A stretch of 64,000 nucleotides of DNA from Amphiscolops sp. MND2022 (taxonomy: Eukaryota). A model generated the notes under the pieces. That model searched no databases. It worked only from the letters and a program-made list of their open reading frames with translations, and was not told the origin of the DNA. The stretch covers positions 17,362,001 to 17,426,000 of the forward strand of contig OZ076409.1 of the NCBI GenBank assembly GCA_964187785.1, in the 5' to 3' direction. This document shows positions 2,734 to 39,107 of the stretch, piece by piece; within the stretch, counting starts at the first letter, position 1; each line of letters opens with the position of its first letter. A program made the position numbers and the translations under genes.

Positions 2734-3287
2734 AAACAAGACGGGAACGTCAAGAGTCGGCGCTATATCTAAGCCTCAAAAAGCGCAGTTTTTAATCCTG
2801 TAAAAGCGGGGACCCTTTGGGCTTTTTGAAAATCCAGTTTGTTGCAAAATATCAAAGGAGACCCTTTGGAGACAAAAAAATGTCGAATTTTTTTTGATTT
2901 TCGAAAAAAAAACGAAAAATGAGAATTTTGAACAGTCTTATAGTGCCGAAATACATTAATGGGAAGACACTTTGGGCTGTTTGGCACTTTAGTTTGCTGC
3001 AAAATATCAAAAGAAACTTGAAGGTGGGACCCTTTGAAGTTTAAAAAATTGAAATAGTCGCACAGTGCCGAAAAAATCCAAGTTGAAAACACCAAGGCAG
3101 CCAAAGTTTGGATCTTTAGTTTGCTTTCTAGGTTCTGAACGTCGGCTTTATAAATTTGATGAGGTTTTGAGGTTTCCGGTATGTTTTGGTCAAGTTGAAC
3201 AAATGAACAAAAAAGTGTCCACTACGTGTCTAGAAAAACTACCCACTGTAATGGCGGGCACATTTTCTAAAATGCGCCGACCAAAAA
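2734..3287 (-). mobile_element. HINE/DINE-1-like non-autonomous Helentron, family A
   Basis: Ends AAACAAGACGGGAACGTC..AGTCGGCGC and GCGCCGACCAAAAA, with internal AAAGGGACCC-type subrepeats. Confidence 0.7.
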
Positions 3288-10245: not shown

Positions 10246-10839
10246 AAACAAGACGGGAACGTCTCAAGTCGGCGCCCCGCTTAAGGCTCAAAAGGTTAAT
10301 TAAAAATGCGCAAGCAAATGGTTAAGCAAATACTCTCATACTTTAAGAGAGCAAAAAATTCATAAGGGCACCCTGAGCCTTGAAAAGCGCTTTTCTCTGA
10401 CTGAACTCATCCAAAATTACAAATTTAGTGGAAAAAAATTGTTAGTTTTTTCCTGAAAAAAAGGAACAAAGTGTCAAAAAAACTCAAAAATAGGGCCCTT
10501 TAGGCCCGGTAAACGACTTTTCCAACGTTAAAACAATGCGAAAACCCAAGGAGGCCCTTTTGTCAAAAGGGGTTTTTTCGAAAAGTTGCACATTACGGAA
10601 ACATTTCAACCGGGTGACTGTTCGCTGCTTTTTTAGCCTTGTTAATGCCTTCTAGTTTGTCTGCCTAGATATGAAATGGTCCTAGATACGTTTAAGACTG
10701 GCTCAACGATGATATGAAGTCACTGAAGAAGATTGACAAATTGAACAAAAAAGTGAACCATTCAGTGTGGCCGTTGACAAAAACCTTGCCTGTGTAAGGT
10801 TCGGGCACTTCTTGTATTTCAGAAAACGCCGCCTAAAAA
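10246..10839 (-). mobile_element. HINE-like family A copy (diverged)
   Basis: AAACAAGACGGGAACGTCTCAAGTCGGCGC ... AAAACGCCGCCTAAAAA. Confidence 0.65.
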
Positions 10840-11034: not shown

Positions 11035-11513
11035 AGGAAGGAGTACCAAGTACACGAGTATTAGCAATACATTAATATAGAAAACAAATTCAAGGAAGCA
11101 CGTCGGAAAAATCGATCAGTGCCTGTGTCACAAAAATGGGCGTATTCGCAGTTGACAAAAATTTCCTCGGAGACAAATTGCAATTGCATTCGCGAACCTT
11201 GTTTGTAGAGTTTTTCGTTGTTAGGACCCCGAGCACCCCATAAGTCGCCTGTGTCTCTATTGGAAGTTTCCTAAGTTTATCTTGAAATCAACAAAACTAT
11301 TACATTACTATTACAAAACTATTCTATTCAGGACTCGTTCTGGGTTAATTAACCTCATTCACAGTGATTTAGAATTAACCCTAATGAACCTAGTGGTGCT
11401 TTAAAACTGCCTACCTTTTCTCCAATTTCTGATTCCTTTTGCCAGTAGCCCATTTTCTCTAGCACAGTTTTTTTCTACAAGTAATTGGTATCTAGTTGAT
11501 TTCAATGGCACAA
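11035..11513 (+). repeat. Local duplication copy 1 (empty site for the HINE at 14171)
   Basis: Near-identical to 13991-14940 once the 14171-14639 insert is removed. Confidence 0.9.
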
Positions 11514-13830: not shown

Positions 13831-14170
13831 TAATTTTACGTGAGTTCAATTCTATGGGTAACTCCCTTTAAGGTGAATATAAATTTCGTGCTTGGCAAAT
13901 TTTGTAAAAAATACCCCATTTGATTTGAATATTTTCCTATCCCATATGAAATATGGGCGGAAAATGAAATGTGAACTATTCAGTGTGGCTAGGAGGGAGT
14001 ACCAAGTACACGAGTATTAGCAATACATTTATATACAAACACATTCACGGAAGCGCGTCGGAAAAATCGATCACTGCCTGTGTCACAAAAATGGGCGTAT
14101 TCGCAGTTGACGAAAATTTGCTCGGAGACAAATTGCAACTGCATTCGCAAACCCTGTTTGTAGAGTTTTT

Positions 14171-14639
14171 AGTCGGCGCTTTTATGAATAAAAGAGCCCG
14201 ACTATTACAGCCACTCGTTTTTTTTCTTTAAGACAGACTCGAAGCGACGATCGTTAAATTTAACGTTCAACTACTAAATACAGTACTACTAAAATACTGA
14301 CAGTGCATTTCAGATAATGCAAAGGGTCCCCCTTTCAGTTAGTCCATTTTTATCGTAAGATACAAAACAGGACGAGACTATAGGGTCCCCCCTTTGAGTT
14401 TTTTTCGGCACTGTGCGACTTTTTTTCGAAACTCTTTTTGTCCCCAAAGGGTCCCCCCTTCGAGTTTTTTGATATTTTGTAACGGAATGTATGTTAATAA
14501 ATCCAGAAGGGTCCCCCTTTTACATTTTTCGGCACTATGCGACTTTTTTTGACAGAAAAAAAATTCAATTTTTTTGCAAAATCTTTTGCGCTTTTTGAGC
14601 CTTAGATATGGCGCCGACTTTAGACGTTCTCGTCTTGTT
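14171..14639 (+). mobile_element. HINE-like family A, complete copy with empty-site paralog
   Basis: TTTTT|AGTCGGCGC ... GCGCCGACT TT AGACG-TTCT-CGTCT TGTT. Absent from the paralogous site at 11211-11215. Confidence 0.85.
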
Positions 14640-15620
14640 CGTTATTAGGACCCCGAGCACCCCATAAATCGCCTGTGTCTCTATTGGAAGTTTCCTACGT
14701 TTATCTTGAAATTAACAAAACTATTACATTACTATTACAAAACTATTCTATTCAGGACTCGTTCTGGGTTAATTAACCTCATTCACAGTGATTTAGAATT
14801 AACCCTAATGAACCTAGTGGTGCTTTAAAACTGCCTACCTTTTTTTCCAATTTCTGATTCCTTTTGCCAGTAGCCCATTGTCTCTAGCACAGTTTTTTTT
14901 CTACAAGTAATTGGTATCTAGATTGACTTAAATGGCACAAGCATTAGAAACAGGGAATGTGTCTCCAAAGCTGAGAAAAATGGGTTTTTTGCACAAAAAT
15001 TAGATATATTTTCCCAAAGTTCAGTTTTTGACGAAATCTTGTTTTCTCAAAAGTCTTTGATCAATAGAAAAAAGCCAACCACATACCCATCCACAGCAAG
15101 TCCTGGTGCAACAAACCCGAAAAATATTCAGTTGTTACTATGTGGAATGGTCGCGATGCTTCGATACCGGAAAAATCTAAAATTCTGGCGAAATCCTGGG
15201 CGTGCGGCGACAGGGGCTCATCTGACCAAAATGAAAGCCCAATAACAGACCTTTCAAACGCGCTATAGTTCGTTTCTCTGGTACGCGTAGTTGTGGATAT
15301 GCTAATTTTTATAAAATTTTTATTCAATTTTTTTGAAAATTTTTATTAACGCCCAGGTCAATTGGCAAACGTCGCATCCTGGAAAAAAGTTGTTGCAAAA
15401 TTGTATCGAAAGGCCAGTATTGACGCAGAAAATTGACGCCGTGCATTTCTGGTCGACTGATTCACAAGTTGCAGAATTTCTTGGTCTCAGATCAGGGACT
15501 CCGCAAAAATCATGGCCATTATTAAATGGAAAGTAAAAAAAATTATTGCCCTATTTTTTCTCAAATAAATTTAATTGAGCATTGCAAAAAATAAAATATG
15601 CCAATTCTTGTACAAAGATC

Positions 15621-15982
15621 AACAAGCCGGGACCGGCCCAAGTCGGAGCCATTTCTAAAGCTCAAAAATAGCAAAAGGACTTCAAAATGTCAAAGTATTG
15701 GTGATTGGGGACCCTTTTATGAAAAAAAAATGACCCACAATGCCGGAGAAAACTCAAAGGTGGGACCCCTCGGTCTCGCCCGGTATTGTATGTTACGCGG
15801 AAAAAAGGAAAAACCTTTTTGATTCTGTTCGCTAGGCCAAATGGGTCAATTTGACACCATAAAATTTTGTAGAACTTGTTGAACTTATTTGGTCACTTAG
15901 GTGTATCGATTTTTTTTTAAAACACTGACGAAAAGCCATGACTATAGTCTAGACCACGACTAGAAAAGCGCCGACTCAAAAA
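15621..15982 (-). mobile_element. HINE-like family A copy nested in the hAT element
   Basis: AACAAGCCGGGACCGGCCCAAGTCGGAGC ... AAAAGCGCCGACTCAAAAA. Confidence 0.75.
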
Positions 15983-17204: not shown

Positions 17205-18430
17205 AGGAATTCCCTAACAGCCGAAATTCCAAACAGCAGAAAATGAAAAATTGGTCTAAAACAGCGAAATATTTCTTTATGCTGCAATCTGATTGGCTAA
17301 AATTTGAAATTGAATTGAATTCACTAAGCTGAAAACGCGTGTCAGATTTTGTCGAAATTATTATTATAACGTAGTCAGCTATGTTCACATACCTCTAGTG
17401 CCCTAAATGCAGGAGCGAAGCGAAGCAGAGTGACGTGCCATATGGTCATGCCTCAATGTTGCTACTTGGCGAAGGGAGCGAAGTGACCGAGCCATACAAT
17501 AAATATGCAAACTTTCTCAAATAAATCAAGTTTCAACATATTGGCTGTAACAGCACTAAAAGCTGGTAATTTGAATTCTGCTGTATAGGACCAAATTTTC
17601 ATTTTCGACTGTATGAATAGGCACCCTACGACACTGTCAGGTATCATCCCTCGTACACGTGATATAACTCAGCGAAACTTCTTTGGGAATTTTACCGGTC
17701 ATTACTGCAAGTGGCGAGTCTGCTATGTTCACATACTCCTAGTGCCCTAAATGCAGGAGCGAAGCGAAGCGGAGCGACGTGGTATATAGCCATGCCTCAA
17801 TATTGCTACTTGGCGAAGGGAGCGAAGCGACCCAGCCATACAACAAATATGCTAATCGCCACAAAATGTAACCAAATGAAAATAATATGGAATTCTTTCG
17901 ACGCATTGAATAGCTTTTCATTTTTCGACGATTTGAATGTTCGACGAATTGAAGTTGCACCGTGGCGAGCAATAAGCAGCGAGTGAAGCAAAGTTGCGTG
18001 CTAAGCGAGCGGGGAATTCCCACACAGCAGAAGTCTCATACAGCAGAAAATGAAAATTCGGTCCCATTCAGCAGAATATTTCTTTATACTGCAATCTGAT
18101 TGGCTGAAATTTCAAATCGAATTGAATTCACTATGATGAAAACGCGTGTCAGATTTTGTCGGAATTATTATAACGTAGTCAGATATGTTCACATACCCCT
18201 AGTGCCCTAAATGCAGGAGCGAAGCGAAGCGGAGCGACGTGCCATATGGCCATGCCTCAATGTTGCTACTTGGCGAAGGGAGCGAAGCGACCGAGCCATA
18301 CAACAAATATGCAATCCTTTTCAAATAAATCAAGTTTCAACATACTGGCTGTAACAACACTAAAAGCTAGTAATCTGAATTCTGCTGTATGGGACCGAAT
18401 ATTCATTTTCTGCTGTATGAATAGGCCCCA
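17205..18430. repeat. Cluster of three related repeats sharing a GCGAAGC-rich ~130-bp core; two have long inverted termini
   Basis: Core ATGTTCACATACC..GGAGCGAAGCGAAGC..GAGCCATACAA at ~17381, ~17725 and ~18185. Inverted termini CATACAGCAGAAAATGAAAATTCGGTCCCA / TGGGACCGAATATTCATTTTCTGCTGTATG at 18037-18419. Confidence 0.8.
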
Positions 18431-18810: not shown

Positions 18811-19810
18811 GGACCATGTCATCTATTAGCCCATTGTCAATTCGGTCCAACTTTTGTGTTTTTCGGGTACTGTAAAAAAGAATACTTGACACTTTTAGTC
18901 CTTTTGCTATTTTTGAGCCTCAGATATGGCGCCGACTTATGCCGTTCCCGGCTTGTTCTTGTTTTCGACCGATTTACCTAAAAGTGTTTCGGCAAGTTTT
19001 TTTTTACTTAATCATTTCTTCCAGATCTACTGAAGCCATACATTACCGTTTTCAGAAATATCAGGCTCAAGTTGTCTAAAAACCTTCGTTTTATACCATC
19101 AGGATTGGTAGTTAGGTTTTCGCAAGGAAAACTAATTATTATTTCTTTTTACATTGTTTCTGGTAAAAAATACAATTGGGTTCTAGACAACCTGCAGAAT
19201 TCACCGAATCCCTAAAATTTTGAGGCCATTTTTTTCAAAAACATGCTCAAAATTGGAAAAAAGTTTCCTTTTTGCGCTTCAATTCAAAATTGAAGTTATT
19301 GCAAATAAAAATTTCGGACCATGCCATCTATTCCCCCAGGGACACCTTGTTGTGAATTTTTCCCCAACACGAAAACACATTTTGTTCTTGATTAAAAAAT
19401 ATTTCACTAATAAGAGAATATGATATGAATGTAAATTCTTAGAGGATTGTCTCTACAACTGTTTGGACACTGCAGGCAAAAAAATTACCATAATTTTTTG
19501 ATATTGTTGTCCAAAATAGTAACAATTCACGTTTGGAACAAACTAAAATCGTATAAAAGGCCCCTATTTCAGCGCAAATTTTGCCCGCTATAAAATCTAA
19601 TGAGCAACTTCTAACTGACAGTCAATGTAATGGATAGGATTATGTCGACATCAATTATTTTATTGGACCAAAATTCCAACGCAAACAATGTCGACATAAT
19701 CGTATTTGAACCTTTTCTCTTATTGCCCCCTGCCGCAGTTTGGGGGATAGTTGGTAATTATAGTATTATTAATAATTAGTAGGGGGGGGGGGACATAGAT
19801 GACATTGTCC
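18811..19810. mobile_element. Non-autonomous TIR element with GG..CC ends and 8-bp TSD (Merlin-like), composite
   Basis: TIR GGACCATGTCATCTAT / ATAGATGACATTGTCC, with TTTCTTTT on both sides. An extra internal terminus lies at 19316, and the element contains a HINE 3' end. Confidence 0.7.
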
Positions 19811-21647: not shown

Positions 21648-21767
21648 AATGAGTCAATGCTTCAAGAGTTTCAAATTTTTATAGCAGATAGCATGCAGAA
21701 AAATTGTTACAGGTTAGGATATGCGGTTTCAATAAATTGGTTTGAATAATTTTTTATTTGTTTTTAG

Positions 21768-22109
21768 GATCCCCTAGTGCAAGACGAGATGAAACCATTT
21801 TCGATGCCCCTGACGTTAAACCTTTGTCTTTTTCTGAACAACATCCTAAATGGACTAAAGCATATGCTACCTTTGGTCACAAGAAGAAACTGAACGAATT
21901 TCTGACTCTCGGCAAAATACGTTTGACGTCTTTCGTGGTCGTGTCCGCCATGGGAGGCCATTTGATAGCCCCTGTGTCAGTTTCGCCATCTTGCTTTGCT
22001 GCCCTGTCAGTGGGAGTTCTTTTGACCTCAATGAGTGCCAATTCTATGAATCAGTTTTTGGAGGCTCCCTATGACGCGCAGATGGCTCGCACTCAGAACA
22101 GACCTTTGG
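21768..22109 (+). CDS. COX10: COX10 exon 2, protoheme IX farnesyltransferase
   Basis: Acceptor TTTTTAG|. Encodes LGKIRLTSFVV..SANSMNQFLEAPYDAQMARTQNRPL (UbiA/Cox10 NxxxxxxxDxxMxRTxxRP motif). Donor G|GTAAAG. Confidence 0.95.
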
Positions 22110-22845
22110 GTAAAGCTATTTACCGTGCAAAAATTCTTGCACAAAAAAGTAGTATTAACAAAGTTCGATATTTGTTATGTAACTGGGTATACAGTTAGAT
22201 GAACTCGAATGAATCCCCTTTTAAGAATTCAGTAACGATGGCAGGAAACTCTCACGTCTAATCGAAGGTCTCTAGCTGGCGCAGTTTGTATCAATATGTT
22301 CCCAATTATTACAGTCTCGAGTTTTTTTCCAGAATACAAACCTCACATCGAGTGGTCGTTTTTTAAACAATCTTCTAGACTAAGATCTAAAGCGTATCCA
22401 CAGAGACTAAAGAGTCTCCACGTTGAAAATGCCACGTTTTCAATTGGATGAGGTTTAAACTATGTGAGATTGAAGGGTACTCCCGTAGGTTTTTTAGAAA
22501 TGGTTTCAGATAGGAAACATCTTTTTTTGAACCCAAAGGGTCCCATGTGATTATTTTTCGGCGCTGAGATTTTCCGAAAATCACATGAACACCTTTTAAA
22601 CGTTCAACTTTTCACTTCTTCAAACTGAAACGGGCCCCAACGTTAGACTTTCTCGTTTTGTTCACTCTTTCGTTCACATCACAAGCCAATTGTTCCATTT
22701 TTAGTCGGCGCTTCATGAAGTTTGATGTTTTGGAGAATGGAATTTGAAAAATTTCAAAGGACCCTTTTAGCGCGCACCCGGCACGGCAATTTAGTCGTTT
22801 GAATTTTTCGAAAGTGTTTCGAAACTTTTTTGATGTCCTTTTGCT

Positions 22846-23240
22846 ATTTTTAGTCGGCGCTTTTCGTAGAAAACGCAGAGTATAGCACTGGCTTTTTTGA
22901 GACCAACGAGGTGACAGATTTTATAAGCTTTATACGCTTCCACTAACTGCCACACTAAACTCGTAACTTCTACTGCCACTTGGCATAATCAGGATTTTTG
23001 AGGTCTGGGAAGCAGAAGGACGTTGGTTCGAGTCTCACCTTTGACCAAAATTTTCTTTGTGCATGTTATTTCGGATTTCTAAGACTTTTTTTCGCAAATT
23101 TTTTTTAATGTCTGCAAAGGGCCCCACTTCAATTTTTTGATATTTTGCATCAGAATGGATGTTCAAAAAATCTCAAAGTGTCCCCCCTTTTATATTTTTT
23201 CGGCACTTTGCGACTTACCGTGGACTTCAAAAAATTTTTG
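22846..23240 (+). mobile_element. HINE-like family A, subfamily with tRNA-like segment (3' truncated)
   Basis: Starts TTTTTAGTCGGCGCTTTTCGTAGAAAACGC. Contains TTGGCATA..GGTTCGAGTCTC at ~22980-23040. Confidence 0.65.
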
Positions 23241-23292
23241 GAAAATGGAAAATGGTAGAGATAAAATTGTATTATGTTGATTGGCGTATGTA

Positions 23293-24060
23293 CCATACCG
23301 TAATAAATGAATTGGACCTCTGATTGTAAAAAATGATTTGGACTCGATTAAAGGAGACCAAAATCTTCTGAACGAAAAAGTTTTTTGGAAAACTGTAAAA
23401 CTAAAAGTTTATTAAATTTTAACGTTGATTACAAACAGTATTGTTTGAAAATTTTGAGATCAATTACAAAAACTTAGAAACTATGCATTTTACTACTGAT
23501 TTCGTTTCTAACTTATTTTAGTTCAAATTTCAAAGGCCTTGAGTGTTGAAAAAAGTTTGTTTTTAATCTTTCAGACGCTTTTTCAACAAAAGTATCCATG
23601 GAAATATTTTTTATGGCAGAACTTTGAAAAGAAACCTTCTTGAACAGGACAAGAAACTTGAATGCAATGTATTAAGATAGGGCATAAAATTACTTTTGAA
23701 AGAACCCTTATATTTTTATAGTTTTCTTCATGTTTTCTGTAAACAAAACATTATCGCCATTAGTGGATGGATTAGTTTCTGTCATTATTACAAAATTGCA
23801 AAACTGCGTCTGTGAGACGTCTAATTTTGCAAAATTTGCTCCTAGATCAAAATTTAGTAGTGAATACAAGTTGGTGAAAGTGTTATTACAAAGTTCCAAA
23901 ATTGTTTGCAAAACTGATTCTGAAGTGTTTTCACAAATTTATTAATATTTGATCAAGCGTTTTTTGATTACCTCCAAAATCACTCGGGTTTCGAGCTAAT
24001 TTATTTTCAGTCCAAATCATTTTTTACAATCAGGGGTCCAATTCATTCGATACAGTATGG
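23293..24060. mobile_element. MITE with ~55-bp TIRs, TA-flanked
   Basis: TA|CCATACCGTAATAAATGAATTGGACCTCTGATTGTAAAAAATGATTTGGAC ... GTCCAAATCATTTTTTACAATCAGGGGTCCAATTCATTCGATACAGTATGG|TA. Confidence 0.8.
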
Positions 24061-24321
24061 TAGTTGTCAAATACACATGAACTATTTCGTCGCGAAATTT
24101 GGTTTTTCTGTTCTCGATCGTTTTCCTTGAAACATTAATCCCATATTAGCTAAAGTCAATTTTTGAATTTATCGGATAATCACTGATCCTTTTTTTCCTT
24201 TTTTATGGTTGAAACCCTGACATACTAAATGTCCAGTGAAAAGAATTCCATATTCTTACTTTTTTTCCGTCGTGAAAAAGCGTAACACGGTTTTCTAGTC
24301 GGCGCTTTACATTGGCAAGTG

Positions 24322-25112
24322 TTTTAGTCGGCGCTTCATGGAGTGAAACGCGACTAATATAGTGACGCTTTTTTTCTATCCACACGAACTGACCAAAATA
24401 GTTCTTGAAAGTTTTACAAAATATAATTGCACCAAATTGCTCCATTTGGCCTAGCGAATTGAACCAAAAAGGTTTTTCCTGTTTTTCCGCGTAACATACC
24501 ATACCGGGCGAGGCCAAAGGGTCCCCCTTTCAATTTTTTTGGCACTGCGAGACTTTTTTGGGAAAAATTTTTTCCCCAAAGGGTCCCCCTTCAATTTTTT
24601 TTGCTGTTTTGCGTCAGAATGGAAGTTGGAAAATCCCAAAGGGTCCCCCCTTTCAGTTTTTTTTTGGCACTGAGATTTTTTTCCGAAATAAAAATTTTCC
24701 CTCCTTCAATTTTTTGATGTTTTGCGACAGAATGGATGTTGAAAAACCCCAAAGGTCCCCCCTTTCAGTTTTTTGGTATTGTGAGACTTTTTAAAAAAAA
24801 TTCTCTCCGAAGGGTTCCCTCTTCAATTTCTTTGATATTTTACAACAAATTGGGTGTTTAAAAATCCCAAAGGGTCCCCCTTTCAGTTTTTCGGCATTGT
24901 GAGACTTTTTTCCGAAAATTTGTTTTTTTTCTCCAAAGCCCCCCCCCTTCAACTGCGACAAAAATGTTGACAATTTCGGAAGTGTCCCCCCGCCACTCGG
25001 TCCATTTTTTTGCTTTTTCGATTTTCGACTACTGTAAATTGACTCTTGGATGTCCTTTCGCTATTCTTGAGCCTTGGATATTGCGCCGACTTGGGCCGGT
25101 CCCGGCTTGTTT
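24322..25112 (+). mobile_element. HINE-like family A, long copy with expanded internal subrepeats
   Basis: TTTTAGTCGGCGC ... GCGCCGACTTGG GCCG-GTCC-CGGC TTGTTT, with several AAAGGGTCCCCC units. Confidence 0.8.
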
Positions 25113-25470
25113 GAAAGACCACAGACTTCACGCTGAATGGTGCACTTTTTTATACTGACTTCACGCCTAAGCTCTGAAGGGTATATAAGGAGCCCTAGGA
25201 GACTAAGGGGTACTCCCTTGGTGTTTTTTACAATATTTACCGTATCCTTGGTAAAGGACAAGAACCCGCATTTGCGCAGCTTTCAAAAGCGTTGTTCGCT
25301 GAAATATTGTTGGTTGTGGCTATCATTTTCATTCATTGTTCACTGCGGTTGCTTTTCTTTGCTCGACGAATTTCTTCGGTTCTATTTTTGACGCAATTTT
25401 GGAAGAGTTTGTGGACACGAAGGTCCTTTGCGGAGGGTGATGTTATGGAATATCTTGGAAATGCCAAACT

Positions 25471-25994
25471 AAATCAAGCCGGGAACGGCCCAAGTCGGCG
25501 CCATATCTAAGGCTCAAAAATAGCAAAAGGACTTCAAAGTGTCAAGTATTCTCTTCTACAGTACCCGTTTGAGGAAAAAATTGAAAAAAAAACCGATTTT
25601 TTTTGAAATATTTTAATTTTTTTTGGTCTCCCGTAAGTCGCATAGTGCCGAAAAATGTAAAAGGGGGCCCTTTGGGAGTTTTTGAACATCTATTCTTTTG
25701 CAAAATAGAAAAAAATGAAGGAGGGACTCTTCGGAGATATTTAAAAAATTTGCGAAAAAAATGTCTCACAAAGCCGAAAAACCTCCACAAAAAAATTTTG
25801 TCATGGGCGGGATTCGAACCCACGTCCTTCTGCTTGGCAGACCTCAGAAAATCCTAATTAACCTCTATGCCAAGTGCCAGTAGAAGTTACGAGTTTAGTG
25901 TGGCAGTTAGTGGAAGCGCATAAAGCTTATAGAAAAAAAGAAAAGTCACTTGGTCTATACTCTGCGTTTTTCTACAAAAAGCGCCGACTAAAAA
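25471..25994 (-). mobile_element. HINE-like family A, complete copy with tRNA-like segment
   Basis: Both termini present. Minus strand has TGGCATAGAGG..GGGTTCGAATCCC at ~25805-25873. Confidence 0.8.
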
Positions 25995-26659
25995 TCCGAA
26001 TGGAAAAGAAATAAAGCATCATTTGTTGACACAGAAGGCGATCACAGACTGTGTTACTGGTTATCCATACTTGTTGGTGCTGAGAAAGTAGTGAATGAGT
26101 GGTTCTTAATGCATTTAAGAGCATAGACAATGGATGCAACGCAGCTATCTGTCACATTTTTTAATGCGTTTAACAGATCGTGAAGTGGTTTTTCGGTAAA
26201 AAATCCACTCATGTCCAAATTAAAATTTTTGAATCATTTTTGATGTTTCTATTTTTATACCTTTCAATTGATACTTTTTCCTAGATTGATAGTTTTTTGA
26301 TGACTAATAATTATTTCTCGACTGAACTGTATGTAGAAAAATCAATGTCGTTTTTGGTCTGCGCTTCTATTCGGGCTAGGTTCATGACAGATACACTAGG
26401 TATTTTTCTGGAACTCGCCATTTGGGCTCGCAAGCTCTGGTATATAATTACAGTACTATAGTGTAAAATGCTGCACCCAAACCGTTTTCTGACTGCTTCG
26501 GGATAAACGAGACCATTGGCATCTAAGACTCTCGGAAATCTCAGAAAATAATTCGAAATCTACCTAAAAGGTAAACTTGACTTTTCTAATTGATTTCCGT
26601 TAATTAGGCCTTAAAAGGCTGTTTTACACTGGTAAGATTTTTGAAAAGAAGTCTGAGTA

Positions 26660-26824
26660 CAGTTAACTCCGGTTATATCGTCTCCCGATTATTCGGCTCT
26701 TCGTTTAATTCGTATGTATCTGAGAGGCCCTGTTTCGCGACGACCCCTGTCATAAGATCCGTATTCTCATTATTCGTACTATTTTATTCGGTCCCTAGCG
26801 ATACGGATTAGGCGGATTCAACGG
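26660..26824. mobile_element. pogo/Tigger-type MITE (diverged)
   Basis: TA|CAGTTAACTCCGGTTATATC ... GATTAGGCGGATTCAACGG|TA. Confidence 0.55.
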
Positions 26825-27390
26825 TACTAGCCTCTCCAAAGCCATTGTTTCCAAGTATTTGATGTTTGAGGTTGAAAATGATTTTTTCTGCCAAAATTGA
26901 ATGAAGCCGAGACCTTGTCAGCAAGTTTTTCTACCTGCAAGCGGTTTCTCAAAGCCCTCAGGCTGAAAATCAATATCGTAAGTACAATAGGTTTTGCGCT
27001 CAAGATAAAAAGAAGGAAAATAAATGTTTTTAGTGACGAGAATCTCGGTGCCGTCTCAAAAATCCTCCCTCCATTACCGTCCCTAATCAACATCCTCTTT
27101 ATCGTTTGTTCACATTCTTTTTAAATGAAACAAGGACCGTGCGCAACGAATGTAGTTTGTTAGCTCATTTTTCAATTTTCAATGAGGGGGCAAGCCTAAA
27201 ATGAAGGTTGAGGTGGTGTCGTTCCGGCGCAAGCCTCCTTGCAGTGTCATTAACAGTCCCATGAAAAAAAAACACGAAAGTTTCAGCAAGTTGATGACTA
27301 ATATATAAATTAAAACACTAAAATGCGTGTCAAGATAAGTGCATCAACATCTCTCGGTTTTTGTCTGTAATCAAGGTAGTGTTGTTTCAG

Positions 27391-27624
27391 TGAAACGTTC
27401 GCTCACTCCGGAAGCAGCTCTGTGTTTTTCTGTGTTCTCTGGGGCCCTTGGTTGTTCGACGCTGTTGCGGGGTTGCAATGCCCTGACGGCTGGCATCGGA
27501 CTGGCCAACATTGTGCTGTACACTTCGGTGTACACTCCCCTCAAGAGAGTCAGTATCGTCAACACGTGGATTGGTTCTCTCGTGGGGGCCCTACCGCCTC
27601 TGATGGGATGGACAGCTGCTACTG
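27391..27624 (+). CDS. COX10: COX10 exon 3
   Basis: Acceptor TTTCAG|. Encodes NIVLYTSVYTPLKRVSIVNTWIGSLVGALPPLMGWTAATG. Donor G|GTACGT, phases 1-1. Confidence 0.97.
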
Positions 27625-28048
27625 GTACGTGCTAGTCTTTCATGGCGCAGGGAATACATTTAATAGTATCACTTATTTTATCCGAAAGAGTATGTGAAAA
27701 TAGAAATGGGGAGACCGTTCTGACTAATTTGCCAATTTGTAGAATTTTGAATTTTGGTATTGGGCATGAAATTGGTCACTTCGACCGGATTGAAAAAACA
27801 ACACGACGGCAAGTCACTAGAATAGTCGCATTTTATTTCATGAAGCGTCGACTAAAAAGTAGAAATATTATAAAAGAAGTAGACATCGAAGTTTAACATA
27901 ACATTTGATCAAAAATTGTATCAATAAAAATTAGCTGGTAGCTACGTTTAAAATGAAAAATATTCAGTCACATGAGCAAAATTACTCAATTCCAGATTAC
28001 GAACGAAAGGTTTTATGATTTACAGGCCAATAAAGGTGTTTTTTCTAG

Positions 28049-28373
28049 GTTCCTTGTGCCCAACTGCCTTCATCATGCCGTTAGTTCTGTACTCTTGGCA
28101 ATTTCCTCACTTCAACGCTCTGAGCTGGAATCTGCGCAGCGACTACTCACGGGCTGGCTACCAAATGATGTCAGTAACAGACCCTGCTCTGAGTAAGCGT
28201 GTCGCTTTCAGACACACTTTGTTGCTCTTCCCGATTTGTCTCGCTGCGCCCCTCTCCGGGTTGACCATGTGGTTCTTTGCCCTGGATTCGACATTGCTGA
28301 ACATGTACTTCGCTTATCTAGGGTACCATTTTTACAGAGACGGGGACTCTAAGTCTGCACGTGCCTTATTCAG
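28049..28373 (+). CDS. COX10: COX10 exon 4
   Basis: Acceptor TTTTCTAG|. Encodes LYSWQFPHFNALSWNLRSDYSRAGYQMM..SARALF. Donor AG|GTTGCT, phase 2. Confidence 0.97.
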
Positions 28374-30234
28374 GTTGCTGGGCATTGTCAGCACTGTCAT
28401 TAATTGAAAAAAAATCTGCAATCTTAGGAAACGCAGACTTTATTGGTGGTTTTTTCTGAGACCAGCGAACTGACAGCTTTCTATTGATTCAATAACTTGT
28501 AACTTCTCCAGCCACTTGGCCTATTGGTTAGCGAAGGAGTGACAACGGCTGGGGAGCTGAAATTTGTGGGTACAATATATTAAAATGAGACCAAGGTGCC
28601 CGCTCTTCTGATTAAAGGTTACTGTTTAGAACGTTTTCGCTGTGGAAAAACGTTTCGCGGGCCTGAAAAGTCTCTTATTTGGTTTTTCGGCACTGTGACT
28701 TTTTAAAACAAGTCGGGACCGGCCCAAGTTTCAAAAAACCAAGTTCCTTGAAAATGCAAAAGACACTGTTTTCAAACTTTTATCAATTTCTCAGTGCCGA
28801 AAAATACCCCGAGGGATACACATAAGACTCACTCGGAAACCTTTTTTTCCCGACACCTGGAAACACCAAAAAATTCATATTTTGAAAATTATTTTTTCGA
28901 TTTTTTTTCGGAGAAGTCTCAGTGCCTAAAAAGAAGCTTTCGGCTGGCAAAAGTACTTTTTCTCAAGTTGAAATTAGCTGTTAAAGCAAAAAGGGTACCC
29001 TTTGACCAAATGAAAGTTTCAGAAAAAAGATGGAGAGCCGAAAAAGCTTATAAAAGGTATTTTCCACAATCATTAGGAAATTGTTTCTCTGCTCAAGTTT
29101 CTTGAATATGCAAAGGACACTGTTTTTGAACTTTTATCACTTTCCCAGTGCGGAAAAAAATACGCAAAAGGATGCGCATAAAACTCGGAAACCACATTTT
29201 CCCCAACTGGAAACAAAAAATCTTTTTTCCTCGAAAAAAATCGATTTTTTCGGAAAAGTCTCATAGTGCCGAAAAAAAGAACTTTCAGCTCGAACAACTA
29301 CCTTTTCTCAAGCTGAAATCAGCTATGCAAAGCGGGAGGGTAACCTTTGACCAAATGAAAGTTTTGGAAAAAAGGCACAGAGCCAAAAGAAGCTCTAACA
29401 AAGTGTGATAAAGTTTTGAGAATAAAACGGTTGAATTGAGAAAGAATACCGAAAAATTCAAAAGAGAGACCTTTTGGCTTTAAATGATTTTGCATTAACT
29501 CTGAATATCCTAAAAATCAAAAGGGGGACGCTTTTGTAACATTGAAAAATTCTCAAAAAATGTTATATCCGGAATTCGTTATGGATTCGGTGATATGTAT
29601 TGTGCTGTTGCTGGCGACAGTGGCTGGACAGCAGGAGAATACTGGGCTTGTCGAAAACTTTCAACATTTGCAATGCTAGTCTAAGTCAAAACCTAGACCT
29701 TTTTTGGCACTGCGCAACTTTTGCCCCAAGTTTTTATATTCACTCAAAAGTCCCGTCTTTGAATGTGCTGATGTTCTAGCAATGAAAAAGCGTTTCCGAA
29801 TTTCAAGGTTTCTGGCTTTCTGGCGCGTGAATCTTATTCCGAAAAAAATGGGTTTTTGATGTTTTCTGTTAGGGAAAAATGTTTTTCAAGCTTCAAGGAT
29901 GCCCCTTCGAGGACCATTTGGGCACTGTGAGGTTGTTGAGTTGTTAAAAAATTTTCCGTGATGCTATGCTCTTTTTGAGCCTGAAGTTGGGCTATGCTGA
30001 CTGTTGTTTCAAAACGCGACGACTACGATTGCTGATAACAGTAACTTACTGTTGAAAATCATGTTTAAAAGGTGACCCATGTGAAAACTTTCTTTTCTCG
30101 AAATTGACAGCCTAAGGTTGGCTGTCGCAATTAAGCACTCATAAGGTAGTCAGTCTTATACGTAGTAGAAAATGTGTTGATAATTGCAAAAGTTCCAGAA
30201 GTCGCTTGGACGTGTAAGCTGACAATGCCTGCAG

Positions 30235-30379
30235 GTTCTCTTTGGTCTACTTGCCCTTGGTGGTCGGTCTGATGTTGTGCTCAAAGTACTGGGACTGTTT
30301 CACCCTCTTCAAAGACGGCAGGGTGCTTGCTCTGAGACATCCAAAGACTTACCATTCTGCTGCAACAACTAATCCTTAG
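30235..30379 (+). CDS. COX10: COX10 exon 5 (terminal)
   Basis: CTGAC branch-like motif, then CCTGCAG|G. Encodes (R)FSLVYLPLVVGLMLCSK..NP*. Phase matches exon 4, giving a 1437-nt total CDS. Confidence 0.9.
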
Positions 30380-30915
30380 TTATCAATTGATAAAAATATA
30401 TTTTGTGATAGCGGAAATCTTATCCTCGGTAATTTTATCATCTTGTCTCTACGTCCTTGTTAGAGAAGCAGAATCTTAGGCTCAAGGATTGTTGAAAACT
30501 GAAATGATGATGGGAACGATCTGATGGTCTCAAAGCTTGACTCCAGTTGATTTTAATTTTCTTTCGCTTTTCCACTGTTCCACGTATTCTATAGCTTCAA
30601 GTACCCACATGAGAATAATTTGCCATTTGCATCCACGCTTTTACTGAATCTCAAAATAGTTTTCACATCTCGAAAAAAATTTTGTCTCACGGTACTAAAA
30701 TTTCTATCGCTTTATTGTTGCCGTGAAATACTGTACCATGATTGCGTTGTAGAGTGTTTTTAATGGATGCACCACAAAATGGCCGATTTTCAACATAACA
30801 AAATGCCGCTTTCTAAAGTGTAACAAAATGGCCAGTTTTGACAACGTAACAAAATGGCTGATTTTCAAATTTAGCAAATGTTATGCCTAAGAGTCAGCCA
30901 TTTTGTGCAGTCTCC

Positions 30916-31505
30916 TTTCTAGCCGGCGCTTTTGGATTTTTTCAATATATACCATTAAGTGGAACGCGACTATTATAGTGACTTTTTTCAATCCAAACGA
31001 ACTGACCAAAATAGTTCTTGAAAGTTCTACGAAATTTCATGGACCCAAATTGAATCATTTCGCCTAGCAAACTGAACCAAAAAAAGTTTTTCTTGTTTTT
31101 CCGCGTACCATACAATACCGAGAGAGACTAAAGGGTCCCCCTTTCAGTTTTTTTCGGCGTTGTGAGACTTTCTTTCGAAAAAAAATCCCCAAAAGGTCCC
31201 CCTTCAATTTTGTGATGTTTTGCGACTGAATGGATATTGAAAAATCCTAAAGGGTCCCCCTTTCAGTTTTTTGGCAGACATTTTTCGAAAAAAAACGTTT
31301 CACCAAAGGGTTCCCTCTTCAATTTTTTGATGTTTTGCAACAATGCATGTAAAAAATCTGAAAGGATCCCCTTTTTGGCGCGCCAATTTGATCCAACTTT
31401 TGGGCTTTTCCGGGTACTGTAAAAGAATACTTGACACTTTGAAGTCCTTTTGCTATTTTGGAGCCTTAGGTATGGCGCCGACTTATGCATGTCCCGACTT
31501 GTTTT
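30916..31505 (+). mobile_element. HINE-like family A copy (duplicated at ~39644-40234)
   Basis: TTTCTAGCCGGCGCTTTT ... GGCGCCGACTTATGCATGTCCCGACTTGTTTT. Confidence 0.7.
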
Positions 31506-33078
31506 CAACACTATCCGAAATTTTGACGTAATATAATAAAGCGCTAGTTTCTGACGTTATATGCGAACTTTATTGCGTTTTACTAAAGAGGAGGTGGAGG
31601 TCGAAAACAGGAGTTTTTCATGAAAACGTCCAACTCATATTTAACAAGCCGGGAACGGCGCAATATGATTTTAGCTTGTTTCAAACGTGAATTTCTGCTA
31701 TTTTGGACAATAATATCAAAAAATTAGGCAGGTTGTCTAGAACCCAATTGTATTTTTTACCAGAAACAATTTAAAAGAAATAATAATTAGTTTTCCTTGC
31801 GAAAACCTAACTACCAATCCTGATGGTATAAAACGAAGGTTTTTAGACAACTTGAGCCTGATATTTCTGAAAACGGTAATGTATGGCTTCAGTAGATCTG
31901 GAAGAAATGATTAAGTAAAAAAACTTGGCGAAAAACCTTTAGGTAAATCGATCGAAAACAAGAACAAGCCGGGAACGGCATAAGTCGGCGCCATATCTAA
32001 GGCTCAAAAATAGCAAATGACTACAAAGTGTCAAGTATTCTTTTTTACAGTACCCGAAAAACACAAAAGTTGGGCTGAATTGGCGCGCCAGGGGGACGCT
32101 TTGAGATTTTCAATTTTTCTGTCGCAAAACATCAACAAAATTGAAGGGAGCCCTCTGAAGTCAATGAATATTTTCGAAAAGTCCCACAATGCCGAAAAAA
32201 ACGTTTTCCTAGGTCTAAAATTGGTGGGAAAAGTGTTTCTCAGTCACAGTACTGTATTATATGAATTATTTTATGCAATATTATTGAAGTCTTTCACTTT
32301 GATTAAAGACTAATTTGTCAACTTCTAAAAATACAGCAAAAGCTGGAAAAAGTGCTTAAAAACTTCAAAATGTTAGAACAGAACTGAAAATATTTCGAAC
32401 AAGACAGAGACATATTACCTCCATCAATGAGTGGCATGTGCGTATCGGAACCTACATATATGCAGTTTAAAAATATTTTAGGAACAGTTTGTTACAGAAA
32501 AGTCCTTACAAAACCGAAACTCTGTTTGTTAGAACTTGGATTGCAATCAAAACATGAAACAAACAAATGAGCTATTTTTCATTCGTGGATGAATTAAACA
32601 AAATATGGCATTTGTAGTGGAATGAAAATAGGTTATTTGTTTTCTTCGTTTGGTGAACATACTTGAAATATTTGCCTTGTTGTTTGCAGGAAAATGGGAT
32701 TCGTTGGTTTCGTCTCTTTACATTGAAAAAACTCGAGTCTGCGCGGAATTCGAACATATCTACCCCTAGTAGCTCAAATGGCGTAGCAACGACATGAAGA
32801 AAATTATAAAATATTTTCAAGATCCGTCAGTTCGAGTGCTCTTAGAAACAGTAACGACTAGAATCTTCGTTTTTAGTCGGCGTTTTCGAAGAAAAAGCAC
32901 GACTCTTACAGTGGCTAGATTTATTTCGTCAGTTCAACGTGATCGGTCCACGTTTTTGTTCAACTTCTTAACCGAGAGGTTAACCCGGATATTCAAAGTT
33001 TTGAGCCTTAGATATAGCGCCGACTTTTGACGTTACCGTCTTGTTGACTTTAGATATTATCCCCCCTCTAAGCTGTTT

Positions 33079-33128
33079 TAGTTACTTGACTATTTTAGTT
33101 ACTAGTAACTAAAATAGTCAAGTAACTA
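33079..33128. repeat. Perfect 50-bp palindrome (also at 41808-41857)
   Basis: TAGTTACTTGACTATTTTAGTTACT|AGTAACTAAAATAGTCAAGTAACTA. Confidence 0.95.
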
Positions 33129-34120
33129 TAGGTGAGGTCGAAGAAACTATGAGGAGATTTGGCAGAATTTGGAAAAAAAAACGGAACATAGAATATGATT
33201 TTCCTCCCCCATTATATGTGGGCGGAAAATAATAATTTGAATGTGGATACAATCGTGATCAGCTATGATCTGTACGTCCAAGCCTGTAAACACAGGAACG
33301 AAGCAGAGAAATGTGCCATTGCTGATCTAGAGGCTTGTTTCAGAAGCGGCCCAAAAAGGAAGGCCTAGTCATACAACATAGTTTCAAAACCTGTTTTTAC
33401 TTTGGACCGTAATTTCTTTTGAAGACCTTTTTTGAATTCCAATAAACAGTCTTGGGGCGTTATTTCCTTCTACCCTCTTACGATATATGGAGCGTGCATT
33501 CAGCGTCAATCATGATGGTAAGCATGCCGGGAACGACACAAGTCGGTGCCATATCCAAGGCTCAAAAATAGCAAAAGGACTTCAAAGTATCAAGTATTCT
33601 CTTCTAAAGTACCCGCATGAGGAAAAAATTGGAAAAAAATCGTTTCAAAGTTTTTTAGGTCCGGTAAGTCGCATAGCGCCGAAAAATGTAAAAGGGGACC
33701 TTAAAAAAGCCTAATTGCCCTCTATCTCAAGTGCCAGTAGAAGTAGTGTGACACTTAGTGTTAGTTTAAGTCAGCTCATAAAGCTTATAAAATCTGTCAC
33801 TTCGCTGGTCTTAAAAAAAGAAAAAGTCACTACTATAGTCTGCGTTTTCTACGAAAAGCGCCGACTAAAAACTGCGCTTTTTATGCCGTAGGTATAGCGC
33901 CGACTTTGGCCGTTCTCGGCTTGTTTAAATAATTGGATATATTAATAAATACTTGAAACGTGTACTGAAAATCATGTATCGTGTTTTTGCTATATTTTTC
34001 CCCTGAGGATCGGTATCGTGTGCAAAAAATTATCGCGCACAGTTCCATGTATCGACTCTGGAAATCAAATTCTTGAAAATTCTTCAAATTCATGTACAAA
34101 ACGCAATTTTAATCACTTAC

Positions 34121-37100
34121 TGTGGTATATATTCTGAATGAATGATTCATACATGATTGATTTTCACATAATTTTGATTTGTAATTGACTGAATAAGTAA
34201 CGAAGGTTTTCCCGCAGTCAAGAATATGAAATGGCGACAGAGATAAACTAAAACTAGTGAAACCAATGTCTGAAACTTTCAACCGACCTGCGCCCGAACC
34301 TTTTTTACCTGATCCCGGGAAACCAAGAGTTCCGTGGAAGGACTGGATTCGCCTCTTCAATAATTACATGACGGCTACAAACTACGCAGAGTTGGCTAGT
34401 AACAGAAAAAAAGCTATTTTGCTCCATTTAATTGGACTTGAAGGTCAGACCGTTTATTATTCTTTACGAGATGATACGCAAATAGCTAATAATACTTATG
34501 AACAAGTTTTACAATGCCTTGAAAATCATTTTGCTGATAAAGTCAACGTAGTTTCCGAGCGTTATTCATTTGGGTGTCGTATTCAAAAGTCAGGTGAAAG
34601 TATTGATGAAGTTGTTGTTGCTTTACGACGACTTGCTCAAAAATGCGATTTTGGTGCTTTTCTAAATACATCTCTGCGAGATCAGTTAATCAAAGGAGTT
34701 AGAGAAATTCGCGTAAGAGATCGCTTACTTCAAGATAACCCTTATCTGGAAGAATGTCTAAAAATTGCTAAACGAATCGAAGCGGGAATTGCTACATCTG
34801 TTTTTACTCAAAAATACAAATTACACTGACACTGCTCATAGTAATACTCACACTGTTCAGCGGTTCAATTCGAAATTCAGTCAACAAAAATCGAAATTTA
34901 CTGCTAAATTTATCCATTCTTGTTTTCGTTGTGGATCCAAATTACATTTCGCTAACAGTAAAGATTGTCCGGCTGCGGACAAGAAATGCAAAAACTGCAA
35001 CAAAACTGGTCATTTTGCAAAAGTGTGCCGTAGTGCGAGTTCAAATGTTGTTGTCACAAACACTCTGGGAGAAAATTCTTCTACACCCGTTACCCTTACT
35101 GTAAATAGTCCTTTCAATTCGATTTTTCCTGAATTCTTCAAATATTCCTTACAGTTGGACAACAAAAATGTTGTATTTGTCGTTGGCAGTGGTGCCAAGG
35201 CATCATTTATTTCTAAAGATACGTTCGACAAATTATTCCCAAACAAAAAGTGCATCAAAAACCATTCAAAAATTACTGGTTATGGTGGTTCTGCTATTGA
35301 TGCTCATGGAATTTCTAACTTCGAAACCATGAGTGGTTCTTTGTCATTCAGACAAGACTTTTATGTAGCTCATGGCATTTCTTTGATTGGCCTCGATATT
35401 CTAGATAAACTGCATTTTGCAATATCGATAAACGATACACAATTGAATCGTGTACATACTTGCATACCAGAAACAAGTCCAGGAAGTATCCTCAAGCAGA
35501 AATTTCAAAAATTGTTTGACTCCGACACTCTAGGTCATGCAAAGAACTTTGTTTTGTCTTCAGCAATCGATGCAACAAAAACTCCCGTCATTTCGAAAGC
35601 TCGTCCTTTTCCTTTTGCAATGAAAGACCATGTCGAGAAGGAAGATAAAAAACTTTGTTCACTGGGTGTTCTTGAACCCTGTAACAATGCCGATATCGAT
35701 TGGGCTAGTCCTCATGTTGTTTCATGGAGAAAAAATGGAAAAATTCGGCTTTGCTGTGACTTGCGAGAAGTAAACAAAGCGATAAAGAAAGATCCTTACC
35801 CCTTACCTAACATTGAGTCCACTATAAATTCGATAACTAATGCAAAAGTTTATTCAAAAATAGACTTATCTAACGCTTACCATCAACTTCCAGTCGATTC
35901 AAAAACTCAACGTATGCTTGGTTTTAATTTACCCTGTGGACTATACGAATTTCTGAGAGCTCCATTTGGGTTACGGGACGTTCCTCCGAAGTTTCAAAAA
36001 ATGATGGATATAATCCTAGCTGACTTAAAAGGTTGTTTCAGTTTTCTTGACGACATCATTGTTTATGGTTCTACAAAGGAAGAACATGATGAAAGATTAA
36101 ATGCTGTAATGAATAGATTGCAATCCAATGGATTGGTAGCTAACTTTGACAAATGTGAGTTTGAGAAGAAAACGAACATTGAATGGCTAGGCCTCAAACT
36201 GGGTCTGAACGAATTTGCTATTCTTGAGAACAATTTGACTTCAATCGCTGAAATGAAAGTTCCTTACGATAAACAATCCTTAGCTTCTGCTCTAGGTTTA
36301 TTCAGTCACTATCGAAAATTTTTACCGAGTGATTATTCTTCAAACGCTGCCGATTTCTATATACTACTTCATAAAAATGTTGCCTTCAAGTGGACAGAGG
36401 GTCTTACCGAACAGTTCAAATGCCTTCAAAAAATGTTACTTCGTGCTAAACCTTTGGCAATGTATAATCCTCTAGCAGAAACGATTGTTACATGTGATGC
36501 TTCCAAAATTGGAATCGGTGGTGAATTATCACAGTTGCAAGATAATGGTGAATACAAAACAGTTTCATTTTTCTCTCGTTCATTACAAGAATTTGGAAAA
36601 AAAATAGTGTTCCTGAATTGGAACTACTAGCTTGTATTTGTACTTGCGTGAGATTCGGAAGATTCCTGTGGGGTAAACACTTCACATTAAAGACTGACCA
36701 TAAATCCTTACTGCAACTTATAAATGGTGAAACTGGGGACTGGTCTGCCAGGTTACTACACTATGATTTTACTGTAGTACACAAACCTGGAAAAAGTAAT
36801 GCTGTGGCTGATGCGCTTTCACGATTACCAGTTGATTGTTCATTTACTGATGATGATTCGTATGTTCTAAATGCTCTTTTTGATAACTTGTCTGCTTTCA
36901 CTGTTGATGAAGTTGACAATGTTTCCAAACAGGATCAAGTTTTGATCAAAGTGCACGATTTCATTATTAATGGTTGGCCACTAGACGAAATGTTATGGAT
37001 GAAAAATTACTACCTTACTTTGCAGTTCGGAATGAACTTTATTGTTGGTCTAAATACAGTGTAGGTCGCGGTGCAGCCATTGTAATGCCTGAAAGTCTTT

Positions 37101-38381: not shown

Positions 38382-38962
38382 CTTACAAATTCATTGATAG
38401 ACATATGTTTCGTCTGTCAGCACATCTCAAATTACCAAAAGAGAACATACTTTCCACTGACACAGGACTGGCTGGAGTTGACAAGATCTCCAGAACTATT
38501 GTTCTAGTTCCTTTCCCCAGGAGAATGTCCTTTCATACTTTTCCTTTCTACTTTCGTGCCACAGCTAACGCCCAATAACTTTTGTACTCATTTTGGAAAC
38601 CAAAAAAATTGCTTCATCTCGTATAAATCGTGTACAGTGGAATCCGGCTGATATAATATTGAGGGGAGACATGAAAAAATCCAATAGAAGAATACTCTTT
38701 TTTAAAAACTTCGATTTTGACATGAAATAGGTTGTTATTGAAGTTTGTCGTTTGGACGTTAATGCTTTTCCCATCGATTTCTTCAATACATCTCAGCAAG
38801 TCCTAATCATTTTCGATCCATAGCTGTACAAACGGTCCGAAATTGTAAGAGCTTTCACGCAGTCCGTTGCGGTTGATGGTGCAATTGCATCAACCACGTC
38901 ATGATCTTTACCGTTTTCCAAATCTGGGATTTGTACATTTGGTATAAGAACTTCGCCTGCAG

Positions 38963-39107
38963 GTTCTCTTTGGTCTACTTGCCCTTGGTGGTCGGTCTGA
39001 TGTTGTGCTCAAAGTACTGGGACTGTTTCACCCTCTTCAAAGACGGCAGGGTGCTTGCTCTGAGACATCCAAAGACTTACCATTCTGCTGCAACAACTAA
39101 TCCTTAG
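38963..39107 (+). pseudogene. COX10: Duplicated COX10 terminal exon
   Basis: Identical by eye to 30235-30379. Keeps only 8 nt of intron (GCCTGCAG). Confidence 0.8.

Follow-up and report, generated by a model that had tools for sequence, protein, structure and literature searches.

Both Helitron2 and Helentron elements are placed by HELIANO (PMC11417382) in the HLE2 group of rolling-circle transposons. According to the description given by Bao and Jurka (2013; PMC3627910), Helitron2 elements carry asymmetric repeats of 8-15 bp; the 5' repeat lies 0-2 bp from the end, in a hairpin, and the 3' repeat lies about 20-30 bp from the end, directly before a hairpin. The same account has these elements begin with T and insert between TTTT and T/C without duplication, and it proposes that the two repeats pair with each other, thereby opening the 5' hairpin and terminating copying. 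Central tandem repeats are described as typical of HINEs, oyster HINEs are well known for satellite-like interiors (PMC7492417), and a doubling of the 5' end is known from elements of Xenopus and Fusarium.

An initial annotation of a 64-kb stretch of DNA (hereafter the window) had described a very abundant Helentron/DINE-1-like (HINE) family with about 20 copies and fragments. We find that the repeat family is real, non-coding and very common, and all 14 of the positions that had been named for it proved to be copies or fragments. We consider it highly probable that this is a non-autonomous HLE2 rolling-circle family of elements about 180-800 bp long, which would depend on the Rep-helicase (RepHel) of an autonomous partner located elsewhere in the genome.

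The focal copy was confirmed at 14166-14639 on the forward strand (strands are given below as + or -), with the parts that had been ascribed to it. It is 474 bp long with its flanking T-runs, non-coding and intact at both ends. It opens with a run of five T (14166-14170, +), read as host TTTT followed by the first T of the element, a split that the sequence alone cannot fix; given one T per element end, the limits of the element itself would be 14170-14638. The 5' asymmetric inverted repeat AGTCGGCGC (9 bp, 14171-14179, +) follows the run and pairs with an inner arm at 14189-14204 in a fold-back spanning 14170-14204 (+), with an energy of -9.9 kcal/mol and a z of -5.5 in a DNA fold compared with shuffles. 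Behind the fold-back lie a subfamily-specific 5' module (14205-14320, +), which in the window is common only to the copy at 53021, and a central array (14320-14560, +) of ~60-bp subunits that make up a ~120-bp dimer unit and whose core, AAGGGTCCCC, recurs at spacings of 59, 66 and 60. The last part of the conserved 3' block (14587-14619, +) is the 3' inverted repeat GCGCCGACT (14611-14619, +). A hairpin with a 5-bp stem and a 4-nt loop (14622-14635, +) comes next, then TG, and then TT at 14638-14639.

Terminal structure and classification

Of the 12 both-ended copies, 11 have 9-bp repeats that match each other at eight or more of nine positions; complementarity ends at 9-10 bp in all 12 pairs. 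The 5' repeat stands directly after the T-run, and the empty site described below leaves 0-2 T for the 5' end; the 3' repeat starts 28-29 nt and ends 19-20 nt from the terminus, just before the hairpin. The 5' fold-back, which includes the repeat, beats shuffles (p<=0.05) at 11 of 16 ends and fails to do so at five. When 12 5' ends were aligned and folded to a consensus, only four outer pairs were retained (-0.57 kcal/mol), a weak result because the loop region aligns poorly. At the other end, the stem is in register in 13 of 15 folded 3' ends and significant in 8 of 15, and an alignment of 14 ends has 94.6% of its 56 stem cells paired. One stem pair switches between A-T (six ends) and C-G (six ends); since this double change is a single event splitting two subfamilies, it suggests constraint and is no proof of independent covariation. 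Mean identity is 67% among the 5' ends versus 77% among the 3' ends, and HLEs are described as varying more at their 5' than at their 3' ends (PMC11417382).

Set beside Helitron2 elements such as Helitron-1N1_CRe (PMC3627910), the family is alike in its 9-bp asymmetric repeats, in both hairpins and in the positions of the repeats, as well as in the 5' T, the TTTT|T target and the compensatory changes between subfamilies. No sequence match with the elements described there was found in 12 of the 14 supplementary files. With the HINE/DINE-1 elements of Thomas et al. (2014; PMC4067079) it shares subterminal repeats, a 3' stem-loop, central tandem repeats and a T-rich target with two or more T to either side that is left unmodified, and with DINE-1 in particular an inner partial repeat beside the 5' one. 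However, the repeat is 9 bp long as against 12-15 bp in that account and is not palindromic, it lies 19-20 nt from the 3' end as against 38-60 in the mite HINE, and no microsatellite was reported in family copies by Tandem Repeats Finder at a score of 50. Nor is the 9-bp repeat one of the 15 listed in Table S2 of PMC4067079.

The HLE2 elements of HELIANO (PMC11417382) are likewise described with short inverted repeats, a 3' stem-loop after the right repeat and T|T insertion, and the doubled 5' ends of HelenXT233 in that survey resemble those of our copy with 5' ends at 24293 and 24322; the 9-bp repeat of the family falls below the tool's setting of 11-18 nt. Cg_HINE of the Pacific oyster (PMC7492417) is alike in having conserved flanks around satellite-like arrays, a T-rich target, and related flanks with diverging arrays. 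The oyster repeats in that description are 11-12 bp, with a microsatellite, whereas our family has a ~120-bp unit with one 22-bp exception.

The family agrees with the description of Helitron2/HLE2 in repeat length, repeat positions, a 5' hairpin that contains the repeat, a 3' hairpin and the target, and it has the inner repeat, 3' stem-loop and central repeats of DINE-1. The subterminal repeats of 11-15 bp that define a strict Helentron or HINE are absent, and so is repeat identity of at least 11 bp to a described family, as judged against the 15 repeats of Table S2. Judged by the terminal features testable here, the family is placed with Helitron2/HLE2, and a 9-bp repeat 19-20 nt from the end is a better fit to Helitron2 than to HINE/DINE-1. 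The earlier Helentron/DINE-1-like (HINE) label is thus borne out as to the HLE2 rolling-circle group and not as to the 11-15-bp repeats of a strict Helentron. A partner with an endonuclease would make the family a Helentron, and one without it a Helitron2 in the narrow sense. Canonical Helitron1 (5' TC, 3' CTRR, A/T site) was considered and rejected, the ends here being T-run/AGTC and CTTG/TT and the target a T-run.

By analogy with the biology of the group, the HUH Rep domain of the partner would nick one end and its helicase would displace a single strand. Copying would start and stop at points marked by the 5' fold-back, by pairing between the two 9-bp repeats and by the 3' hairpin, and the strand would be joined into TTTT|T without a staggered cut and hence without duplication. 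Copy-and-paste amplification of several master copies, together with slippage in the interior, may account for the split into two subfamilies at the 3' end, for the four or more 5' modules and for the variable length of the arrays.

Copies and fragments in the window

The 9-mer AGTCGGCGC, with up to one mismatch, occurs 50 times in the window compared with 3.3 expected, a number that was matched by none of 100 shuffles. Its contexts sort into two kinds of end: a 5' kind, in which a T-run precedes the 9-mer and its complementary arm lies further inside, and a 3' kind consisting of the conserved block, the inverted 9-mer, a short hairpin, CTTG and TT. End profiles were trained on 13 ends per kind (the training ends match by construction), and 20 simulated 64-kb sequences from a first-order Markov model served as control. 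Most real ends scored 31-64 bits and the weakest counted ends 11-20 bits; the best scores in the simulated sequences were 9.6 and 8.2 bits. The census excluded the second copy of an 8.7-kb duplication, and reverse-strand self-matches and near-background matches were dropped. Hand-picked profile matches outside the duplicate came to 17 5' ends and 18 3' ends, and since the two are about equally common they give no pointer to the direction of copying. A 3' end on the same strand follows within 1 kb after 13 of the 17 5' ends, two of which share one. Both-ended copies, 176-820 bp long, thus number 12 when the second copy of the duplication is set aside, and three more lie within that copy, in addition to fragments. 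Family sequence amounts to 9155 bp in 25 segments (14.3% of the window), dispersed on both strands. The proposal that the family shapes much of the non-coding DNA of the genome is supported on the scale of the 64-kb window only, where its share is 14%.

Among the both-ended copies, 2735-3287 (-) belongs to the A-T hairpin subfamily, and 15621-15981 (-) and 62559-63030 (-) to the C-G hairpin subfamily. The copy at 10246-10839 (-) has a decayed 5' end and a largely different interior, with a weak unit match of 15 bits. At 24293-25112 (+) the 5' end is doubled (24293 and 24322) and about four ~120-bp units are present, and the copy at 25473-25994 (-) carries a tRNA-like segment at about 25800-25880. 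Two copies lie in a GALE-like intron. One of them, 53021-53495 (+), is the nearest relative of the focal copy in the window, at 77% identity; its 3' hairpin is gone by a 16-bp deletion between two CCG trimers, and the terminal CTTGTT is retained (53487-53495). The other, 55043-55536 (-), has an array with a 170-bp period.

Three further both-ended copies recur in the second copy of the 8.7-kb duplication: 30915-31503 (+; duplicate 39643-40232), 32870-33045 (+; duplicate 41599-41774), which is 176 bp long and has no central unit, and 33521-33871 (-; duplicate 42248-42600), which has a damaged hairpin. This head-to-tail duplication (30227-38954 and 38955-47686, 99.4% identity) contains an LTR element as well as family copies, and may be recent, or an assembly or haplotype artefact. 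The LTR retroelement (34121-38381, duplicate 42850-47113) has 111-bp direct repeats that are 96% identical, and its frameshifted frames match RVT_1, RNase H and, weakly, integrase.

Several fragments have a 5' end and no 3' end. At 22698-23237 (+) two 5' ends are stacked (22698 and 22847), the second of which sits at the five-T run of a family 3' block. The 5' part at 56633-57192 (-) has a 22-bp satellite ahead of the ~120-bp unit, and a 5' fragment at 27729-27858 (-) lies between two UbiA-family exons. The 3' part only is present at 18838-18957 (+), 31963-32202 (-; duplicate 40692-40931) and 57895-58124 (+), which are three paralogous loci. Other pieces are a 3' hairpin fragment at 28706-28729 (-), a lone 3' hairpin end at 31643-31663 (-), 300 bp beyond the 3' end at 31963, and a lone 3' end at 33873-33925 (+; duplicate 42602-42654). 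The last of these stands head-to-head with the 5' end at 33871, and the two use one five-T run in common. We considered 33521-33925 as one element with long terminal repeats and rejected this in favour of a both-ended copy abutting a lone 3' end; the arrangement is present at one independent site only.

Around the three paralogous loci, segments at 18838-19746, 31663-33000 and 57057-58867 have 89-96% identity and share the family 3' end together with several hundred bases of downstream flank, and one of them has the lone hairpin end next to it, at 31643. They could be the outcome of end-bypass capture, which was considered for 31643-33871, or of plain local duplication.

One layout had been claimed for every copy. 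The order of T-run, repeat, fold-back, interior, inverted repeat, hairpin and TT is indeed general, but several copies deviate from it: those at 22847 and 57192 have no 3' end, that at 32870 has no tandem interior, that at 53021 has lost its hairpin, and the 5' fold-back does not beat shuffles at five of the 16 ends.

A dispersed satellite spread by local duplication, whose conserved ends would be incidental, might account for such a pattern, since the interiors are tandem arrays and the local duplications in the window (8.7 kb at 99.4% and 1.3 kb at 92%) inflate the copy count. Most copies, however, lie in unrelated flanks and have sharp borders at T-runs, their ends are better conserved than their arrays, and the copy at 32870 has ends and no array. 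A clean empty site, described in the next section, largely refutes this explanation, and we regard it as extremely unlikely.

Insertion into T-runs

An empty paralogue of the focal site was found at 11035-11513 (+), with a run of five T at 11211-11215. Its 11035-11218 part is 92% identical to the left flank of the focal copy and its 11211-11513 part 96% identical to the right flank, the focal flanks so matched being 13991-14173 and 14635-14940; the joined focal flanks align with the empty site over 116 bp, ungapped, at 95%. Eleven both-ended copies were tested for empty sites, and that of the focal copy was the only one found. The empty site has five T and the filled site has five T, the insert and two T, which is a net gain of two T with no longer duplication. 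This is what insertion at host TTTT|T with one T per element end predicts; the letters, at this one true empty site, are equal for a TT duplication or for two T at one end. Because the empty site lacks it, the hairpin tail outside the 3' repeat belongs to the insert. Since the two sets of flanks are only 4-8% divergent, the insertion at the focal site is probably more recent than the local duplication, precise loss of the insert from the other copy (11035-11513) being the less likely alternative.

The 5' run consists of exactly five T at 11 of 16 ends; one end has seven, one has four, and three runs are interrupted. Among the runs of at least five T, 11 of 12 have exactly five (p=0.017 under a plain host-run model). 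At the 3' side, 14 undamaged independent sites have runs of 2, 3 and 4 T in 6, 5 and 3 cases, respectively. On the simplest reading, the element enters a host run behind its fourth T and brings one T of its own at each end. The stacked 5' ends at 22847 and 33871 begin at five-T positions of the family's own 3' block, and in both cases the remainder of the interrupted copy is absent; they agree, weakly, with a five-T target.

Exact junction repeats at the 11 both-ended copies are T-runs only, plus one TTG, and no non-T junction repeats longer than 4 bp were found near their borders. The initial annotation had named consistent target-site duplications longer than 2 bp as evidence against its reading. 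None was seen, and the one empty site has a net TT only, so that both the empty site and the junctions of the 11 copies have the form of TTTT|T or T|T insertion without target duplication. Compared with the Chlamydomonas elements CRe-1/2/3 as described in PMC3627910, the family has neither an excess of 3' ends nor long duplications at truncated copies; CRe-1-like long target duplications are absent at six 5'-truncated ends, where the best shared word is 4-6 bp.

The net TT bears on a second explanation, in which the family would consist of MITEs derived from a cut-and-paste DDE transposon, the 9-bp repeats being terminal and the TT a target duplication. Elements like DINE-1 were for a long time classed as MITEs, inverted repeats are present at both ends here, and the net TT can be read as a 2-bp duplication. 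Against this, the 3' repeat is not terminal: a conserved hairpin tail of 19-20 nt lies outside it and, by the empty site, within the insert. In addition, insertion needs a T-run and keeps to one register within it, as the 11 of 12 runs of exactly five T (p=0.017) indicate. A MITE is, in our judgement, very unlikely.

A third explanation involves a tyrosine recombinase (Crypton- or DIRS-like) or an undescribed single-strand transposase with integration of a circular form at a short overlap of T. Recombination at a TT overlap would likewise account for a gain of two T without other duplication, and no RepHel partner was found among the scanned ORFs of the window. Cryptons and DIRS elements would, however, be expected to have different ends. 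The combination of fold-back, asymmetric repeats, 3' hairpin and TTTT|T is moreover the signature described for Helitron2 (PMC3627910), and we consider this explanation unlikely.

Interiors, partner search and host genome

The interiors had been described as interchangeable, which turned out to be mostly wrong, since one ~120-bp unit, made up of two ~60-bp subunits, is common to 11 of the 12 both-ended copies. The profile of this unit, with a training set from five copies, matches one of the 11 weakly. The periods of 118 and 170 bp reported by Tandem Repeats Finder are forms of the same array. What varies is a module of 100-150 bp behind the 5' end, of which there are at least four types. The first occurs in copies 14166 and 53021, the second in 15981, 24322, 30919 and 63030, the third in 22847, 25994 and 33871, and the fourth in 10839, 32870 and 57192; the types mostly track the two hairpin subfamilies. 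Copies 32870 and 57192 are one insertion in duplicated flanks, the former being an arrayless form of 176 bp and the latter having a 22-bp repeat in 12.7 copies (56785-57065). This satellite begins at a motif of the copy's own interior that is also present in the paralogue 32870, and it is possible that the array represents the birth of a satellite within an element.

Module type 3 includes a tRNA-like segment, seen at 25800-25880 (-), at 22975-23045 (+) and, in part, at 33697-33741 (-). In Rfam it matches the tRNA-like arm of tmRNA (E 0.00038, 17 bits, below the gathering score of 47), and what we take to be a B-box-like motif is present at 25820 and 23025. The segment may be a captured SINE or tRNA fragment. 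Further tRNA-like pieces outside the family, in epimerase introns at 54413-54480 (+) and 59950-60020 (-), carry presumed A-box-like and B-box-like motifs and are possibly host SINEs. ARAGORN, and Rfam at the gathering score, gave no tRNAs or structured RNAs.

These observations could be taken to mean that the family itself is a SINE or other non-LTR retroposon on the opposite strand, with the T-run as a short poly(A) tail. The opposite strand does end in an A-run, one subfamily has the tRNA-like segment with its presumed B-box-like motif, and more tRNA-like pieces lie nearby at ~54413 and ~59969. The run is nevertheless fixed at five and not variable in length, and duplications of 7-20 bp are absent at the 11 both-ended copies and at the six 5'-truncated ends. 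The tRNA-like piece is internal and oriented away from the T-run, only three of the copies examined have it, and the ARAGORN search, like Rfam at the gathering score, was empty. A retroposon origin is as improbable in our view as the dispersed satellite. Even when the MITE, SINE, recombinase and satellite explanations are pooled, they remain improbable as a group, and we retain the assignment to HLE2.

The search for a partner covered 290 of the 312 window ORFs of at least 55 aa, taken outside 34121-47686 and scanned against Pfam; the 22 unscanned ORFs are mostly frames that overlap scanned ones or lie inside copies. Helitron, PIF1 and endonuclease families were absent among the 290 of 312 ORFs, a scan that shorter or decayed fragments would escape, and only UbiA and epimerase scored above the cut-off. 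Relatives were also looked for in other sequence collections. A strict 3'-end pattern had no match in metagenome contigs and a loose one had 68 loci, which had neither a 5' end (best E 0.8) nor a central unit and were treated as chance matches; GC was below 47% in one of 69 metagenome loci. Viral scans returned one chance locus and none, and a scan of prokaryote genomes returned none. Among the literature matches listed for the 9-mer, all are unrelated to transposons, and in 12 of the 14 supplementary files of PMC3627910 it occurs once, inside unrelated coding DNA.

The window is eukaryotic and holds exons of a UbiA-family gene at 21746-28404, which we take to be COX10-like, and of a UDP-glucose 4-epimerase gene at about 52173-61049. 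Their introns reach about 6.6 kb and hold several family copies, those between 22698-27858 and 53021-58124 sitting between exons of the two genes. The closest named relatives of one epimerase exon are the acoels Symsagittifera roscoffensis and Convolutriloba macropyga, at 71-72%; fish and molluscs reach 66% or less among the named animal matches. Judged by this one exon, the host is probably an acoel, a marine worm.

These data add an HLE2 family of clear structure to what is probably Acoela. Our literature searches, mostly of non-subscription sources, found no acoel Helitron report, and the repeat table of PMC9911081 might list Helitrons. In the survey tables of HELIANO (PMC11417382) no xenacoelomorph names were found, control terms being found. 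The family is probably new, of a known Helitron2/HLE2 design, and the record for the host group is probably new as well; it leaves the understanding of rolling-circle transposition as before. In the acoel genome papers, repeats left unclassified make up about one fifth of the sequence (20.4% in P. naikaiensis), and a family that makes up 14% of the window, much of it in introns, could be part of that fraction. It is a tentative possibility that ordinary HLE2 elements make up a large, unrecognised share of an acoel genome, missed by tools that need repeats of at least 11 bp. We rank this as more likely than the alternative that Helitron2-like ends with a strict five-T register are served by a non-RepHel enzyme, whether a tyrosine recombinase or a single-strand transposase of an undescribed kind. 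This alternative is very unlikely and, if true, would amount to a new kind of transposon converging on the HLE2 layout. With its high copy number and fixed T register, the family would allow the number of terminal T carried by an HLE2 element, a point raised in PMC4067079, to be determined from empty sites across the genome.

Other repeats are also present in the window. A tandem array at 49185-50077 consists of 5.2 copies of a 172-bp unit (93% matches), and no relation to the family was found. A direct repeat pair of ~310 bp (28740-29394, 76%) has decayed matches to the central unit of the family nearby. A second dispersed repeat family occurs at 17206-18429, 59194-59462 and 63731-63999 with ~89-94% identity and adjoins a 28-bp minisatellite at 63731-63827, and a perfect 50-bp palindrome lies at 33079-33128.
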